This document shows positions 30,895 to 38,469 of a DNA stretch of 64,000 nucleotides, in pieces. Both the position numbers and the translations under genes were made by a program. Under the pieces are notes generated by a model that ran no database searches, was not told the origin of the DNA, and saw only the letters and a program-made list of their open reading frames with translations. Positions within the stretch are counted from its first letter, which is position 1, and every line of letters starts with the position of its first letter. Origin of the DNA: Thermoanaerobaculia bacterium (lineage in GTDB: Bacteria; Acidobacteriota; Thermoanaerobaculia; Multivoradales; SZUA-115); the NCBI GenBank assembly GCA_044869955.1, contig JBIOYC010000074.1:9114-73113 (forward strand), given 5' to 3'.

Positions 30895-32412
30895 TCAGTC
30901 GTCGGCCGCCGAGGCGTCCTTGATCACGAAGCGGGCCGAGAGGCGCGCCACCTCGGTGGCGAGCCCGGCGAGCTCCACCGAGCGCAGCACTTCGGCGAAG
31001 TCCTTGTAGGCGGCGGGGGCCTCGTCCCGGGGATAGTTGCGGCCGTTGAAGAGGATGTCGCGCTCCTCGAAGGAACGGTCGATCTCCCCTTGGTCGAGCT
31101 CACGGATCGCCCGCTTGCGGCCCAAGGCCCTCCCGGCGCCGTGGTTGACGCTAAAGCAGGAGAGCGCGGCCCCGGGCTCGGCCACCATCACCGAGGAGCC
31201 GGCCTGGGGGTTGCCCGGCAGCAGGATCGGGTGGCCGGTCTGCGCGAACGGAGTGCCGGCGAGCTCGTGGTGCCCGGCTGGGAAGGCGCGGGTGGCGCCC
31301 TTGCGGTGGACCCACATCCGTCGCCCCTCGACCACCTCGAGCCGGGCGATGTTGTGGCTGATGAAGTAGACCAAGGAGGCCTGGACGCCCGGCACGACCT
31401 CCTGGAAGGCCTCGAGCACCAGCGCATTGATCAAGAGGTGGTTGAGCGTGGCGAAGTTGGCGCCGAGAGCCATGTCGTCGAGGTAGTCATCGGCCTCGGC
31501 CGTGCCCAGCGGCGCATAGACCAGCTCGCGATCCCCGCCCGGCAGGGGGATGCTCCAGGTGGCGAACTTCTGCTGCAGAGTCTTGAACTGGCGCGAGGCG
31601 AGCAGGTGCCCGAAGCCCCGCGAGCCGCAGTGGGAGAGGAAGGCCGCCCGACCGTCGGCGAGCCCGAAGGACTCCGCCACCCAGCGGGCGCGGTCGCTGC
31701 CGGCCACCTCGACTACCTCACACTCGCCGAAGTGGTTGCCACCGCCGTAGGAGCCGAGCTGCTGGACCTTCTCGCCGAACTTGCCGAAGGCTGGGTCAGT
31801 ACCCAGCAGGCGCTCGAGACGCACCGCCAGGGCCTCCTGGGTGCCATCGTGGCCGCGGTGGAAGGCGTCCTCGCAGCGCTCGGCCCATTCGGGTGGGATG
31901 CCGAGAGCCTCGCAGACCGCGTCCGAGGCTCCCTCCACCACCAGCCGGCGGCCGAGATCCTCCGCCACCCGCCGTGCCTTCCTCACCGAGCGCTGGCCCT
32001 TGCCGGCGCCGGTGGGCACCCGCTCGCCGATGGCCTCGATCAAGGCCCGACGTACCTTGCGGTCCACCACCGCCTCGGCGGGCAGGTCGAGCTGAAGCAG
32101 GCTCATCGAGCACTTGATGTCGACGCCGACCGGACCGGGGTAGATGTGGCTGGGCGAGGCGACCACGCAGCCGACCGGCGCCCCGTAGCCGACGTGAGCG
32201 TCCGGGTTGAGCACGACCCGGGCGACGCCCGGGGACATCCGGGTGTTCATAGCCTGCTGAAGGCAGCCGGCGTCGAAAGTTCGGCGGATGGCCTCGGTGC
32301 CGATCACGGTGATCGGCGGCAGCGAGCCGCCGGCGACCGGCAAGAGGGCGGTAGCCTCGCCGGTCGGCACCAGCTCAAAGCCGGTGGCTTCAGAAGGGTT
32401 GGCAGAGGTCAT
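30895..32412 (-). CDS. rtcB: RNA-splicing ligase RtcB
   Basis: Collinear with the RtcB family (GVDIKCSM, GGGNHF, HNIA, VNHGAGR metal/GMP-His blocks). The upstream part of the 964-aa track ORF is rejected. Confidence 0.85.
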   Translation of the reverse strand: MTSANPSEATGFELVPTGEATALLPVAGGSLPPITVIGTEAIRRTFDAGCLQQAMNTRMSPGVARVVLNPDAHVGYGAPVGCVVASPSHIYPGPVGVDIKCSMSLLQLDLPAEAVVDRKVRRALIEAIGERVPTGAGKGQRSVRKARRVAEDLGRRLVVEGASDAVCEALGIPPEWAERCEDAFHRGHDGTQEALAVRLERLLGTDPAFGKFGEKVQQLGSYGGGNHFGECEVVEVAGSDRARWVAESFGLADGRAAFLSHCGSRGFGHLLASRQFKTLQQKFATWSIPLPGGDRELVYAPLGTAEADDYLDDMALGANFATLNHLLINALVLEAFQEVVPGVQASLVYFISHNIARLEVVEGRRMWVHRKGATRAFPAGHHELAGTPFAQTGHPILLPGNPQAGSSVMVAEPGAALSCFSVNHGAGRALGRKRAIRELDQGEIDRSFEERDILFNGRNYPRDEAPAAYKDFAEVLRSVELAGLATEVARLSARFVIKDASAADD

Positions 32413-32426
32413 GGGCGGGCGGGAGG

Positions 32427-33596
32427 TTACCCGAAAGCTCGCCTCGCCCGCCAGGCGAGCAGCCGTTCCACCGCCTGGTCGATCGTGTCCTCGTCCTTGC
32501 AAAAGGCGAAGCGCAGCCAGGGGCGGCCGTGCTCTTTGTTGAGGTAGAAGGGGCTCGCCGGGATCGCCGCCACGCCGGCTTCCTCGGGCAGGAGGCGCGA
32601 CAGCTCGAGGTCGTCGTCGAAGCCCAGGGGGCGGATGTCGGCGAGCACGAAGTAGGTGCCTTCCGGTGCCTGGACCCCGAAGCCGGACTCGGCGAGGCCG
32701 CGGCAGAGACGGTCGCGCCGGCTCCGGTAGCGGGCCAGGTAGTCCTCGAAGTAGTCGTCGCCGGCCGCGAGGGCCCTGGCCATGGCCACCTGGAACGGCG
32801 TGGCCTGGCAGAAGGTCACGAACTGGTGGGCTGCTCGCAGGGCCTGCGTCAGCTCTGGGGGGGCGCAGCTCCAGCCGATCTTCCAGCCGGTCAGGCTGAA
32901 GGTCTTGCCCGCCGAGGAGATGGTCACCGTGCGCTCGCGCATCCCGGGCAGGGAGGCGAGGGGCAGGTGCTCCCCCTCGAAGACCAGATGCTCGTAGACC
33001 TCGTCCGAGACGGCGATCAGGTCGTGCCGGCGGCATAGGTCTGCTACCGCTTCCAGCTCGGCGCGGGTGTGCACCCGACCGGTGGGGTTCTGCGGTGTGT
33101 TGAGCAGGATCAGCCGGGTGCGGGGCGTGATCGTCGCCGCCAGCTCGGCGGGGTCGAAGCGGAAGCCCGGCTCGCGGAGGGTGACGGCGCGCACGGTGGC
33201 GCCGGCCATCTCGGCGCCGGCAAGGTAGGAGTCGTAGAAGGGCTCGAAGAGCACCACCTCGTCCCCGGGATCGCAGAAGGCCTGGAAGACGCAGAAGAGG
33301 GCCTCGGTGGCGCCGGCGTAGACGGTGATCTCCCCCTCGGGGTCGAGGTCCTGGCCATAGAAGCGCCTGCGCTGCGCGGAGACCGCCTCGACCAGCTCGG
33401 GCAGCCCGAAGCTGCGGCTGTACTGGTTCCGCCCCGCCCGGATGGCTTCGACGGCGGCTTCCTTGACGAAGTCCGGGCCATCGAAGTTGGGGGCCCCCTG
33501 GCCGAGGTTGATGGCGCCGAAGCGTGTGGCCAGCTGGTTGACGGCGGAGAAGATCGAGGTGCCGAAGCCGGAGACGCGTCGGGCGGCTCGCCTCAC
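32427..33596 (-). CDS. PLP-dependent aminotransferase, class I/II (YbdL/methionine aminotransferase-like)
   Basis: FGTSIFS, INLGQGAPNFDGP, and the PLP-Lys context SSAGKTFSLTGWKIGW. A GTG start at 33596 gives 389 aa. Confidence 0.8.
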   Translation of the reverse strand: MRRAARRVSGFGTSIFSAVNQLATRFGAINLGQGAPNFDGPDFVKEAAVEAIRAGRNQYSRSFGLPELVEAVSAQRRRFYGQDLDPEGEITVYAGATEALFCVFQAFCDPGDEVVLFEPFYDSYLAGAEMAGATVRAVTLREPGFRFDPAELAATITPRTRLILLNTPQNPTGRVHTRAELEAVADLCRRHDLIAVSDEVYEHLVFEGEHLPLASLPGMRERTVTISSAGKTFSLTGWKIGWSCAPPELTQALRAAHQFVTFCQATPFQVAMARALAAGDDYFEDYLARYRSRRDRLCRGLAESGFGVQAPEGTYFVLADIRPLGFDDDLELSRLLPEEAGVAAIPASPFYLNKEHGRPWLRFAFCKDEDTIDQAVERLLAWRARRAFG

Positions 33597-34054
33597 GGGT
33601 AGTCGTCCAGGTCCTGGAAGGGCAGGCCGCAAGGATAGAACAGGTTGAAAACCGGCTGTTCGATCGCCTCGGCGAATCCCAGGAAGAGGGGGCCGTACTT
33701 CTCGATCGGGGAACCGCCGGCCTCGACGGTCTGGTACTCCTCGACGCTGATGCCCATGGCTTCGGCGATCTGTTGGGGGGTCTTGCCACGGCGCTCGCGG
33801 TGCTGGGCGATCAACCGGCCAGCCTGACCGGCCTGGCAGTCGGCGAAGCGCCCACTGTCGGCCAGCAGGCGGGAGGTCGGCGTCTCGAGCGAGATGGCGA
33901 TCTGTGCCAGGCGATAGCCCCAATCCTCGGCCGGCGTGCTGCCGGCTTCGATGTCCTGGTATTCGGCGGCCGGGATGCCCAGCCGGGAAGCGGTCTGGTC
34001 GACTGTCAGACCCTTCTTCTCACGCTCTTTTCTGAGGACTTCGCCCTGTTTCAT
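33593..34054 (-). CDS. Transcriptional regulator with two tandem XRE-type HTH domains
   Basis: Two copies of G(L/K)T..Q.A..(L/M)GI...Y...E.G. GGGAGA SD. Its end overlaps the aminotransferase start by 4 bp. Confidence 0.65.
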   Translation of the reverse strand: MKQGEVLRKEREKKGLTVDQTASRLGIPAAEYQDIEAGSTPAEDWGYRLAQIAISLETPTSRLLADSGRFADCQAGQAGRLIAQHRERRGKTPQQIAEAMGISVEEYQTVEAGGSPIEKYGPLFLGFAEAIEQPVFNLFYPCGLPFQDLDDYP

Positions 34055-34469
34055 TCGTCTAGTCTCCCATGAGAGTGGTCTGGCCAACTGCGGTCGGCGC
34101 CGGGCTCGACCCGGTCGCCGGGCGGACACTTCCTAAGGATGCGTTGCCACGCTCTGCCGTGACAGGGCACTATAGGAGAGACCGCTTTGCATGCGCCTTG
34201 CTAGTCAGGGTCGTCACTCTGACTCTCGCTGCGTTCCCTGGGCTGCCAGGAAGGCTCCGCCCGGTCGGTGCATGCACAAGGAACTATGTATTATGGGGTG
34301 TTGCTGAGCACCAGAGTGTGGGCCGACTGGATCAGTCGGTGATCAAAGTGACCAGGAGTCTGGAGCAAACCGGGCCGGAGGGGCCGACCCGGTTCGGGGT
34401 GAACCGTGCTCTAGACCTCGAAGAACCAAACCGACGTCTCGCGAACGTCAAACCCAGGAGGTTCCTCTC

Positions 34470-36179
34470 ATGTCCGAGTCCGAAGTCCAGCACCGCATCC
34501 AAGATACGACTGAGGAGACCCAGGCGGATTCATCGGGTCTCTCTCGACGGCATCTGCTGGGGGGCATCGGCGCCCTGGCTGCCGCCGCCACCGCCGGCTC
34601 GCTGCCGGTGGTGCTCACGCCGACGACGGCCGAGGCCGAGCTCGGCCCGGAACTGGGCAGCAACCGCACCGCCGCCGCCGTGGCCAAGCGGCAACAGCTG
34701 ACGGCCCTGATGCAGGCCGCTGGCTCGCCTGCGCATCCCGACAACGGCGACGAGGCGCTCTACGCCAACCTCATCGGCAACTACTCCAAGGGCCTGCCCC
34801 ACAACGCCATCGGTGAGGTGCGCCCGGCGGCTTACTCGAAGTGGCTGACGGCCCTCAACTCGGGGCTCAACGCGGATTTCGAGGCGATCCCCCTGGGCGG
34901 CGTCACGAAGCTGACCAGCCCACAGTCCGGCCTGGCCTACGACCCCGAGGGCAACGACGGACACCAATACGTCATCCCGCCGGCGCCGGCCTTCGCCAGC
35001 GCCGAAGAGGCGGGCGAGATCGTCGAGAACTACTGGATGGCCCTGCTGCGCGACACCCGCTTCACGGACTACGCGAACAGCGACCTCGCCCAGGCGGCGG
35101 CGGACGAGCTCTCCGGGCTCACTGACTTCCGGGGTCCGACGGAAGGCGGCGTGGTCACCCCGCAGAGCCTCTTCCGCGACGTCCTCCCCGGTTGCACCAC
35201 CGGCCCCTACGTCTCGCAGTTCATGCTCCTGGGCACTCCGTTCGGCGTCGAGTACGTCGAGCGCCGGATGCGCACCCTGGCCCAGGGGAGCGACCACATG
35301 ACCAGCTTCGCCGACTGGCTGGCGGTGCAGAACGGCAACGTCCCGGGCGCTGCGAGGTTCGACTCCACCCGGCGCTACGTCCGTAACGGCCGCGACCTCT
35401 CCGAGTGGGTGCACATCGACGTGCTCTTCCAGGCCTACTTCAACGCCTGCCTGATCCTCGGCACTCCGCCCGACCCGAACAACAAGCCCACCGGCGGCGG
35501 CATCGGCTGCCCGCTCAACTCGGGCAACCCCTACAACGGGTACCAGAAGCAGGCTGCCTTCGCTACTTGGGGGCCCCCGTTCATCAAGGCCACTCTTTGC
35601 GAGGTCGCGTCCCGAGCCCTGAAGGCCCAGTGGTACCAGAAGTGGTTCGTGCACCGCCGCCTGCGTCCCGAGGCGTTCGCCGGATGCGTCCACGTGCACG
35701 TGAGCGGCCTGGCCGACTACCCGATCCACTCGGACGCGCTGGACTCCGAGGCCGCCAGCCGGGTGGCCAGCAAGTATGGCACTTACCTCCTGCCCATGGC
35801 CTTCCCAGAGGGCAGTCCCACCCATCCCGCCTACGGCGCCGGACACGCCACCGTCGCGGGCGCTTGCGTAACCGTCCTCAAGGCCTTTTTCGACGAGAGC
35901 TACGTCATCCCCAACCCGGTGGTCCCCAACGGCAACGGCACCCAACTGCGCCGCTGGGAGGGTGAGCCGCTGACCGTCGGTGGCGAGCTCAACAAGATCG
36001 CCTCCAACGTCGGCACCGGCCGTAACATCGCCGGCGTGCACTGGCGCTCGGACGCCCTCGAATCCTTCCGTCTCGGTGAGGCGGTGGCGATCGCCCTCCT
36101 GCGCGACCACAAGGCCTGCCTCCACGAGGAGGGCAGCTTCACCTTCACCAAGTTCGACGGCACCAGCATCACCATCTAG
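34470..36179 (+). CDS. Tat-exported vanadium-dependent haloperoxidase / PAP2-superfamily enzyme
   Basis: Twin-arginine motif [19 protein letters not shown]. The vanadate-site motifs are [10 protein letters not shown] and GVHWRSD. Confidence 0.7.
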
Positions 36180-36188
36180 CTCTCAGCG

Positions 36189-36221
36189 CCGGAGCCCTCT
36201 CCTCCATGGAGGGCTCCGGCG
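36189..36221 (+). terminator. Perfect 12-bp inverted repeat (GCCGGAGCCCTC-N9-GAGGGCTCCGGC) 10 nt after the haloperoxidase stop
   Basis: Read directly. There is no U-tract. Confidence 0.45.
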
Positions 36222-36301
36222 GCTTCCCCGCCTCGCGATCGGCGCGATACGATCTCCCTCCGTGCCGGCGTTCCGCCCCGCGTCCCCGAGAGGGCTTCCT
36301 C

Positions 36302-37492
36302 ATGCCAGCGACCGTCTCAGCGAGCCTTGAAGCAGGAGTGGACTTCTCTCTCTCCGAGGAGCAACGGGCCATCCAGGAGCTGGCCCGCGACTTCGCGGCG
36401 CGGGAGATCGACCCCATCGTCGACGAGATCGACGAGGCCCAGCGCTTCCCCCGCGAGGTGATGGCCAAGGCCGGCGAGCTGGGTTTCCTCGGCGTGCTCT
36501 TTCCCGAAGAGCTGGGCGGCGCCGGGCTCGGCTACGTCGAGTACGTGCTGGTGGTCACCGAGCTATCGAAGGTCGACCCTTCGGTGGGGATCAGCGTCGC
36601 CGCCCACAACTCCCTGTGCACCAATCACATCTACAAATTCGGCAACGCCGAACAGCGCCGCCGCTGGGTGACTCCGCTCGCCAGCGGCCAGAAGATCGGC
36701 GCCTGGGGCTTGACCGAGGCCGGCTCCGGCTCGGACGCCGCCGCCGCCCGCACCAGCGCCCGCAAGGCGGAGGGCGGCTGGGTGCTGAACGGCGCCAAGG
36801 CCTTCTGCACCCACGGCTCGGTGGGGGACGTCTGCGTGGTGATGGCGGTCACCGAGCCCGGGGCGCCGAAGGGCAAGAACCTCTCGGCCTTCGTGGTCGA
36901 GAAGGGAATGGCCGGCTTGCGGGCGGGCAAGAAGGAGAACAAGCTCGGCATCCGCGCCTCGGACACCGCCGAGGTGGTCCTCGAGGACTGCTTCGTGCCC
37001 GACGGCCACCTCCTGGGCGAGCGGGGGGCCGGCTTCCCCCAGGCCCTGGCAGTACTCGACGGCGGCCGCATCTCGATCGCCGCCCTCGGTCTGGGCACCG
37101 CCATCGGCGCCTTCGATGCCGCCCGCCGCTACGCCAAGGAGCGCGAGCAGTTCGACCAGCCGATCGCGAGTTTCCAGGCGATCCAGTTCGCCCTCGCCGA
37201 CATGGCCACCCGCATCGCCGCCGCCGAGGCCCTGACCCTGGCCGCCGCGGCCGAGATGGACCGCACCGGCGAGGTGACCTTGAAGGCCTCCGAGGCCAAG
37301 CTGATGGCCGGCGAGACCGCGGTGTTCTGCGCCGAGCGCGGGGTGCAGATCCACGGCGGCTACGGCTTCATCAAGGACTACCGCGCCGAGAAGTACTACC
37401 GCGACGCCAAGATTTGCACCATCGGCGAGGGCACCAGCGAGATCCAGCGCATGGTGATCGCTCGCCAGATGCTGAAGGGCGCCTCGGCATGA
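36302..37492 (+). CDS. Acyl-CoA dehydrogenase (short/branched-chain type)
   Basis: A full ACAD fold with C-terminal motifs QIHGGYGF and [17 protein letters not shown]. Confidence 0.85.
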
Positions 37493-38469
37493 GCGCAGCC
37501 GCCGGGCGCGGGGTCTCCTTCGAGGCCCTGCTGGAAGGCGTGCGGGCTCGTCGCTCGCGCGCCCTCGGTCGAGCCATCTCGCTGGTCGAGGACGGCCAGG
37601 AGGACGCGGCCCGGCTGATCGCCGCCGTCTACGGCGAGGTCGGCCGAGCCCGGGTGGTGGGCATCACCGGCCCACCCGGGGCGGGCAAGAGCACCCTGGT
37701 CGACCGCCTCGCCCGCTTCGTCCGGGGGCGGGGGGAGACGGTAGGCATCCTCGCTGTAGATCCCACCAGCCCGTTCTCGGGCGGCGCCATCCTGGGCGAC
37801 CGCATCCGCATGCAGGGCCTGGCCACCGACCCCGGGGTGTTCATCCGCTCGATGGCGACCCGGGGGGCCATGGGCGGCCTGTCGCGGGCCACGCCGGACG
37901 CCGTCGACCTGCTGGACGCGGCCGGCTTCGACTGGGTCCTGGTCGAGACGGTGGGCGTCGGCCAGGACGAGGTGGACGTGGTGCGCAGCGTCGAGACCGT
38001 GGTGCTGGTCACCGTGCCGGGCCTGGGCGACGACATCCAGGCGATCAAGGCCGGGGTGATGGAGATCGCCGACCTCTTCGTGGTCAACAAGGCCGACCGC
38101 GAGGGGGTGGAGCGCACCTGTCGCGACCTGGAGATGTTGCTCTCCCTGGCGCCGGGATCGGGTTGGCAGCCGCCGATCCTGCGCACCGTCGCCAGCCGGG
38201 GCGAGGGCATCGAGGAGCTGGTACAGGGCATCGAGAGCCATCGCACCCACCTGATCGCGAGCGGCGAGCTCGCGGCGCGGCGCCGCGCTCAGCTGCGGCT
38301 GCGGGTGGAGACCATCCTGAAGCAGCGGGTCCTGACCGCCGCGGACCGTGGCGACCGCTTGGTGCGCGAGATCGAGCAGGCCTTCGCGGCCGGCCAGGAT
38401 CCGTACCGGACCGCCGATCACCTCTTCGCCGAGGTGGTCGAGGAAGAGGTCGCCGGGAGGCAAGCATGA
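37489..38469 (+). CDS. meaB: Methylmalonyl-CoA mutase-associated GTPase MeaB/ArgK
   Basis: P-loop [24 protein letters not shown]. The ATGA overlap couples it to the upstream gene. Confidence 0.85.

Follow-up and report, generated by a model that had tools for sequence, protein, structure and literature searches.

The locus examined here raises the question of which enzyme is encoded by the open reading frame (ORF) at 34470-36179, and whether the DNA around it has unusual features of its own. The gene lies in a stretch of 64,000 nucleotides (hereafter, the window) from contig JBIOYC010000074.1, whose host is a soil Acidobacteriota (Thermoanaerobaculia) genome. An earlier note on this DNA had proposed a vanadium haloperoxidase-like enzyme secreted by the twin-arginine translocation (Tat) pathway, and had drawn attention to the rarity of such enzymes and to a leader with a short perfect dyad. 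We found that the identification of the enzyme was sound, as supported by the RR motif, an intact active site, phmmer and the fold, but that the attached rarity, dyad, and leader features did not hold up. The locus holds a stand-alone, well-conserved gene for a vanadium-haloperoxidase-type enzyme that is predicted to be exported. The features of the gene are as follows.

34470-36179, plus strand: 569-aa protein of the vanadium haloperoxidase family, algal/cyanobacterial bromoperoxidase type (from the ORF, phmmer, AlphaFold2, and Foldseek)
34456-34461, plus strand: Shine-Dalgarno sequence AGGAGG, 8 nt before the ATG, as read from the sequence
34470-34637, plus strand: predicted twin-arginine signal peptide, residues 1-56, with a long acidic n-region, RR motif, hydrophobic core, and A-E-A followed by E
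35631-35669, plus strand: motif 1, W388-Y-Q-K391-W-F-V-H-R-R-L-R399-P400, with the vanadate-binding Lys and Arg and a Trp at i-3 from the Lys
35823-35846, plus strand: motif 2, H452-P-A-Y-G-A457-G458-H459, with the bromoperoxidase-type extra His, the backbone Gly, and the acid-base His
36021-36053, plus strand: motif 3, R518-N-I-A-G-V-H524-W-R-S-D528, with a vanadate-binding Arg and the His that bonds vanadium covalently

Sequence and structure comparisons were employed to place the protein. When all PDB sequences were searched with phmmer, the protein gave full-length matches to all vanadium bromoperoxidases of known structure from algae or cyanobacteria, namely those of Corallina officinalis (1QHB, E = 6e-81), C. 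pilulifera (E ~1e-78), Acaryochloris marina (5LPC, E = 4e-76), and Ascophyllum nodosum (1QI9, E = 2e-74, in one stretch over residues 80-567), together with 5AA6 (E = 2e-68). At E < 0.1 only enzymes of this kind were returned, and NapH1, NapH3, and the Zobellia iodoperoxidase gave no sequence match at E <= 1. An AlphaFold2 model of the 569-aa protein, built on 59 homologues, showed a mean predicted local distance difference test (pLDDT) score of 87.2 and a predicted template modelling (TM) score (pTM) of 0.86, with disorder limited to residues 1-54 (pLDDT < 50). Foldseek comparison of the model with the PDB yielded TM scores of 0.78-0.85 to 1QI9, 5AA6, 1QHB, 1UP8, and 5LPC, with 1QI9 as the top match (TM 0.83/0.85, root-mean-square deviation 2.1-2.7 Å). 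The streptomycete NapH enzymes and the Zobellia iodoperoxidase followed at E = 1e-4 to 1e-3 and TM ~0.2, and class A acid phosphatases at E > 0.02 and TM ~0.15. An identical protein is present in NCBI (P0001), and a relative with 85% identity carries the name "vanadium-dependent haloperoxidase". Membership of the protein in the vanadium haloperoxidase family is thus near certain. Because NapH1, NapH3, and the Zobellia iodoperoxidase were remote in Foldseek and absent from the sequence search, the window protein belongs to a different branch of the family from these enzymes.

Next, the active site was analyzed in an alignment that joined the window protein to 88 relatives, drawn from contigs of one genome per species (n = 89). 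Both vanadate signatures that had been proposed were present, at 35823-35852 and, as GVHWRSD, at 36033-36053. All three motifs aligned residue for residue with the Corallina enzyme, motif 1 with K398/R406, G458 of motif 2 with G484, and motif 3 with R545/H551. The set of vanadate-site residues was complete (K391, R399, H452, G458, H459, R518, and H524). W388, K391, R399, and P400 were found in 89/89 sequences, and H452, H459, R518, and H524 in 88/89 each; G458 and D528 were kept in 86/89 and 85/89. The His/Lys pair regarded in the earlier note as haloperoxidase-specific was therefore found here, since K391 is invariant and H459 almost so.

The sole departure from the textbook site was Ala457, which takes the place of the Ser in the Ser-Gly-His motif. 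Position 457 is Ala in 82/89 sequences and Ser in 6/89, and it is Ser in Corallina. We considered whether this Ala marks an inactive or different enzyme, and ruled this out, because the A. marina enzyme (5LPC), whose activity has been shown biochemically, has the same motif-2 string with Ala at the same position; the Ser is accordingly not needed for membership or activity. As judged from these sequences, Ala457 is a known natural variant and the norm of the clade, not a defect. A literature search on S402A and on 8VGX returned nothing. Like the window protein, AnVBPO and the fungal chloroperoxidase CiVCPO have a Trp three residues before the catalytic Lys, a position (i-3) occupied by Arg in the enzymes of A. 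marina and Corallina (PMC11871015). Mutating this position alters chlorination activity, but specificity is not predictable from the residue alone (PMC11871015), so we make no call on halide preference.

Regarding export, the N-terminus carries the twin-arginine motif S25-R-R-H-L-L-G-G32 at 34542-34565, followed by a hydrophobic stretch and then A54-E-A56. RR was observed in 80-81 of the 89 aligned relatives with the consensus SRRxFLGG, and the Tat model TIGR01409 matched 38 of 59 close homologues at E <= 0.05. The Tat signal was missing from cyanobacterial and Bacillota relatives. The reading frame itself starts, according to the ORF listing, at an ATG and runs for 569 codons on the plus strand. 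The start codon and the residues that follow are shared with a sister genome, a second metagenome-assembled genome (MAG; DASUEU010000004.1, loci L001/L006) that is syntenic with the window at ~88-92% nucleotide identity. The Tat export predicted for the window protein is well supported by these sequence features, although its own TIGR01409 score fell just short of the cut-off. Secreted bacterial vanadium haloperoxidases (VHPOs) have also been described in another branch, some with TAT/SPI signals and without linkage to a biosynthetic gene cluster (BGC) (PMC11312541).

Taken together, we propose that the window protein is probably a Tat-exported, vanadate-dependent haloperoxidase that makes hypohalous acid from H2O2 and halide outside the cytoplasm. 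The precursor would fold, and probably dimerize as is typical of the bromoperoxidase type, while still in the cytoplasm, and would be exported by the Tat pathway via SRRHLLGG, cut near A54-E-A56, and released to a periplasmic or extracellular location. H524 would bind vanadate covalently, and the vanadate oxygens would be held by K391, R399, R518, and the backbone of G458. H2O2 would then bind the vanadium with assistance from H459, and the resulting peroxo-vanadate would oxidize the halide to hypohalous acid, in a halide/substrate pocket presumably lined by W388 and H452. The product may halogenate organic matter or signalling molecules in the vicinity, or the enzyme may merely consume H2O2; possible roles are antagonism, quorum-signal modification, organic-matter oxidation, and peroxide removal. 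Of this scheme, the analysis establishes the family, the fold, the conserved catalytic residues and Tat motif, and a context free of biosynthetic genes; the dependence on vanadate, the preferred halide, the oligomeric state, and the biological role are inferred.

Several points weigh against this proposal. Some homologues of VHPOs, of which NapH3 (8CXL) is an example, do not halogenate. The haloperoxidase activity is suggested by analogy with enzymes of ~31-33% identity, and the TIGR01409 score of the window protein was 15.2 bits, just below the cut-off of 16.7. The PAP2 check proposed in the earlier note did give a Pfam match (PF01569), but it covered the catalytic core only and, at 22.5 bits, fell below the gathering threshold of 27.2. 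PF22778 (VCPO_2nd), which is precomputed for every homologue, was not reproduced by a local Pfam hmmscan; the Pfam versions behind this PF22778/PAP2 discrepancy apparently differ. Moreover, the active sites of VHPOs and PAP2 phosphatases are nearly superimposable, and apo-VHPOs hydrolyze phosphate esters (PMC9144378). Sequence thus leaves room for a phosphatase role in vivo.

In such a role the protein would be a Tat-exported phosphatase with a PAP2-type site and H524 as the nucleophile, serving phosphate scavenging in the manner of the Tat-dependent PhoD/PhoX. We consider this unlikely. Tat export is common among bacterial phosphatases, and the weak PAP2 match recurred at E <= 0.01 in 49/59 relatives. 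The KxxxxxxxRP, GH, and RxxxxxHxxxD residues are likewise those of PAP2 phosphatases, a phospho-intermediate was trapped in apo-chloroperoxidase (3BB0), and the evolutionary link between VHPOs and phosphatases has been reviewed (PMC9144378). The class A acid phosphatases (PhoN, PhoC, and EB-NSAP, 1D2T) share the core motifs and the nucleophilic His with the window protein. However, they are ~220 aa long without an N-terminal helical domain, whereas the window protein has 569 aa with an extra domain, and its entire 510-aa mature part, well beyond the 130-aa PAP2 core, matched bromoperoxidases of ~550-670 aa (E = 6e-81, TM 0.8), compared to TM ~0.15 for the phosphatases. In addition, these phosphatases keep the Ser of PSGH, which is Ala in the window protein, and lack its conserved pocket Trp and extra His; W388 (89/89) and H452 (88/89) are not needed by PAP2 phosphatases. 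The suggestion that the protein could equally be a PAP2-type acid phosphatase was thus not borne out, and a haloperoxidase remains our preferred assignment.

Another explanation would make the protein a site-selective tailoring halogenase, either a natural-product enzyme like NapH1/Mcl24 or an alkyl-quinolone-brominating enzyme (AQ-VHPO). Bacterial VHPOs with such roles exist, and AQ-VHPOs are secreted and not BGC-linked (PMC11312541). In contrast, NapH1, NapH3, and the Zobellia iodoperoxidase are remote in structure, as described above, and natural-product biosynthesis genes were found neither among the neighbours of the haloperoxidase gene in the window nor across 78 related loci. A tailoring role is, on this evidence, quite improbable. 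The gene had been described as isolated, which was confirmed: the neighbours are housekeeping genes with no biosynthetic cluster. Past a divergent regulator gene, the upstream flank encodes a class I/II aminotransferase and RtcB, and the genes that follow the haloperoxidase specify an acyl-CoA dehydrogenase, a MeaB GTPase, an epimerase-like protein of glyoxalase fold, the small chain of carbamoyl-phosphate synthase, and a permease of the FtsX type. Such isolation is typical for the clade.

The window protein was then compared with characterized enzymes. AmVHPO of A. marina (5LPC, 8Q20-22) is likewise bacterial and shares the two-domain fold (TM 0.78-0.81), all vanadate ligands, and the Ala-Gly-His of motif 2. 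Unlike the window protein, it is cytoplasmic without a signal peptide, ~100 aa longer, and a dodecamer; the identity is ~32%, and its i-3 residue is Arg425 in place of Trp388 (PMC11871015). The bromoperoxidase I of A. nodosum (1QI9) is the best structural match, with a single end-to-end alignment, an i-3 Trp, and a similar length, but it is eukaryotic, lacks a Tat signal, and is ~31% identical. Its motif 2 we take to be Ser-Gly-His, compared to Ala-Gly-His in the window protein. The enzymes of Corallina officinalis and C. pilulifera (1QHB, 1UP8) gave the best sequence score and align in the three motifs; they differ in the i-3 Arg, the motif-2 Ser, ~30 aa of additional length through insertions, a dodecameric state, and a eukaryotic origin. 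The Corallina R396W mutant (7QVW) mimics the i-3 Trp of the window protein. The secreted alkyl-quinolone-brominating esVHPO and lpVHPO resemble the window protein in being bacterial, in having signal peptides (some TAT/SPI), and in showing no BGC or synteny (PMC11312541), and their group includes an enzyme from an acidobacterium (PMC11312541). They fall in the site-selective branch that was studied together with the NapH type, and are set apart here by way of the solved NapH structures, which match the window protein only remotely.

The distribution of the family bears on the claim that bacterial VHPOs are rare, which had to be given up. Homologues at E < 1e-10 amounted to at least 7,998 protein clusters, out of 8,000 candidates scored, and close relatives have already been named "vanadium-dependent haloperoxidase" by NCBI (PGAP). 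According to a 2025 paper, brown-algal V-HPOs have their closest bacterial relatives in the V-HPOs of Thermoanaerobaculia (PMC11765636). The description as rare was wrong because the family is large and the Thermoanaerobaculia enzymes had already been singled out. Among the 78 related loci, which come from species-representative genomes, 66 belonged to Acidobacteriota, mostly Thermoanaerobaculia, and the remainder to Planctomycetota, Cyanobacteria, Methylocaldum, Methylomirabilis, and others. Two or three haloperoxidase copies stood in tandem in 9/78 of these loci. The family is large and has expanded in soil Acidobacteriota. A search of the open-access literature showed no enzyme of the Acidobacteriota clade that had been characterized.

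We also observed that tandem paralogues were ~65-70% identical to each other (L002:2112-6124, L003:3635-7716, L005:4171-7719, and L024:5001-10714), and that a 648-nt non-coding spacer separated haloperoxidase copies in L002, L003, and L004. Apart from the haloperoxidase paralogues themselves, no recurrent neighbour family was identified across the 78 loci. The commonest neighbour was an ORF for a putative zinc-type alcohol dehydrogenase/quinone oxidoreductase in 8/78 loci (e.g., L020:10389-11399), the only neighbour family seen more than five times; it does not occur in the flanks of the gene in the window.

The region upstream of the haloperoxidase gene was analyzed for regulatory elements, and the following features were considered.

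33593-34054, minus strand: divergent neighbour gene for a 153-aa protein with two XRE-type helix-turn-helix domains (Pfam HTH_31 4e-16, HTH_3 1e-11)
34055-34469, no strand assigned: divergent intergenic region of 415 bp between the XRE-type gene and the haloperoxidase gene
34323-34339, no strand assigned: 7-bp dyad CCGACTG-GAT-CAGTCGG, at chance level
34128-34205, no strand assigned: conserved block A, ~90% identical to the sister genome, a candidate shared promoter/operator
34320-34395, no strand assigned: conserved block B, ~78% identical to the sister genome
34368-34394, plus strand: GC-rich hairpin in block B, ~75 nt before the start codon

The leader had been described as a ~340-nt stretch of lower GC content. 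The lower GC content was confirmed (0.61-0.63, compared to 0.69-0.72 in the flanks) and is normal for intergenic DNA of a GC-rich genome, but the length is 415 bp. The dyad is present with the sequence given for it, 7 nt to the left of its reported position of 34330-34346. A GC-rich structured segment was also found as reported, in the form of the hairpin at 34368-34394.

As for the significance of the dyad, when the leader was shuffled with its dinucleotides preserved, 25% of the shuffles held a perfect inverted repeat of 7 bp whose spacer was <= 10 nt, and so did 47% of tiles of 415 nt cut from the window. Eight further perfect 7-bp inverted repeats occur within the same 2.3 kb. In the sister genome (L001) the corresponding sequence is CTAGCTG-GAG-CAGTCGA, in which the left arm is replaced. 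We thus regard the dyad as a chance occurrence, neither it nor the leader being special as had been supposed. A better operator candidate, by its sequence, is the imperfect palindrome TTGCCACG-N6-CGTGACAG at 34144-34165 within block A, which occurs once in the window and whose function we infer only. Block A substitutions showed no 3-nt periodicity. A metagenome scan for the block A pattern TTGCCACG-N6-CGTGACAG-N-GCACTATAGG gave 0 matches. Since no JGI protein was >72% identical to the window protein, no alignable leader is expected in JGI.

These data also bear on the alternative that the leader is a cis-regulatory RNA (riboswitch or attenuator), or that the 7-bp dyad is a controlling operator, a question independent of the nature of the enzyme. 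Blocks A and B are 78-90% identical to the sister genome, equal or close to the genomic background, whereas identity is ~50% between them and ~50-60% for the DNA between and after them taken together. The GC-rich hairpin is kept there, with an A-to-G change in L001 that perfects its stem, and most shuffles fold less well than the dyad hairpin (z = -2.8). Nevertheless, the Rfam search proposed in the earlier note gave no match in 34055-34469 even at E <= 10 (Rfam 15, searched over 33900-36400). The whole leader folded no better than its shuffles (z = -1.3), and the energy of the GC-rich hairpin was not unusual for its composition (z = -0.55). In addition, the left arm of the dyad is not conserved and such a dyad is expected by chance, the block A scan provided nothing to compare, and no similarity was seen to the DNA upstream of 76 further family members, the only matches in an all-against-all comparison of these regions being coding or between close relatives. 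The divergent regulator gene has this region in common with the haloperoxidase gene, and promoters and operators suffice to explain conserved blocks. An RNA regulator or dyad operator is, on balance, highly improbable.

The simplest reading of the sequence is instead that the leader comprises promoters and operators of the two divergent genes plus a 5'-untranslated region (UTR) element, all presumably lineage-specific. The comparison behind this regulatory reading is with one sister genome, which counts against it. Across 83 loci, no homologue of the leader or of the XRE-type regulator was found beyond the sister genome, and the XRE-type gene adjoins the haloperoxidase gene only in the window and in the syntenic sister genome. 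A sigma-70 promoter scan of the region returned 0 sites.

Other observations were made in the same region. A sigma-54-like sequence, TTGCAT-GCGCC-TTGCT, occurs at 34178-34193 (TTGCAC-ACGCC-TTGCT in the sister genome; consensus -24/-12 TGGCAC-N5-TTGCW). We do not claim a sigma-54 promoter there, as it has TG in place of the essential GG and there is no enhancer-binding protein gene nearby. A GC-rich hairpin lies at 34092-34124, 40-70 nt upstream of the start of the XRE-type gene (dG -25.5 kcal/mol, z = -2.1), with arms largely kept in the sister genome and a TTCG-type loop there. A small ORF of 210 codons at 34069-34701 on the plus strand is open across the leader into the haloperoxidase gene in another frame. 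It was rejected because indels in the sister genome break the frame and 3-nt periodicity is absent, and is probably an artefact of the GC-rich genome.

Downstream of the gene, one feature was found.

36187-36199 and 36209-36221, plus strand: perfect hairpin with 13-nt arms, 8 nt past the stop codon

A perfect hairpin had been reported at this position, although with 12-bp arms. The hairpin has a dG of -31.7 kcal/mol (z = -4.4), and the fold extends past the perfect arms. In the sister genome its stem is identical and its loop differs in sequence and length, as one would expect if the stem were functional. There is no T-run after the hairpin (GGCTTCCCC), and a scan with the terminator consensus made no call; U-poor terminators are common in high-GC bacteria. 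A repeated (REP-like) element was rejected, as the hairpin occurs once in the window. It is probably a U-poor terminator or a stabilizing hairpin that separates the gene from the acyl-CoA dehydrogenase operon. The following 80 nt (36222-36301), from the hairpin to the start of the acyl-CoA dehydrogenase gene, were ~95% identical to the sister genome compared to a coding background of ~90%, and are probably the promoter/5'-UTR of the operon for the acyl-CoA dehydrogenase, MeaB, and the epimerase. Synteny with the sister genome stops just upstream of the aminotransferase, where the window has RtcB (30895-32400) and L001 has a CN-hydrolase (nitrilase-family) gene (L001:3072-3830). A further MAG contig (JBIOWG010000456.1, GCA_044868285.1) was 99.77% identical to the window across 34011-38311.

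The locus itself offers little for follow-up: the gene is recognizable by standard annotation, and its surroundings show normal promoter, UTR, and transcript-end features. What it points to is that algal-type VHPOs with a Tat signal are abundant in uncultured soil Acidobacteriota, often in tandem. It is conceivable, though doubtful, that the Tat-exported Acidobacteriota clade with Trp at i-3 and Ala-Gly-His in motif 2 consists of functionally distinct extracytoplasmic chloroperoxidases; these may be a major bacterial source of hypohalous acid and natural organohalogens (e.g., chloroform precursors) in soil and sediment, and the clade may be the donor lineage of brown-algal V-HPOs.

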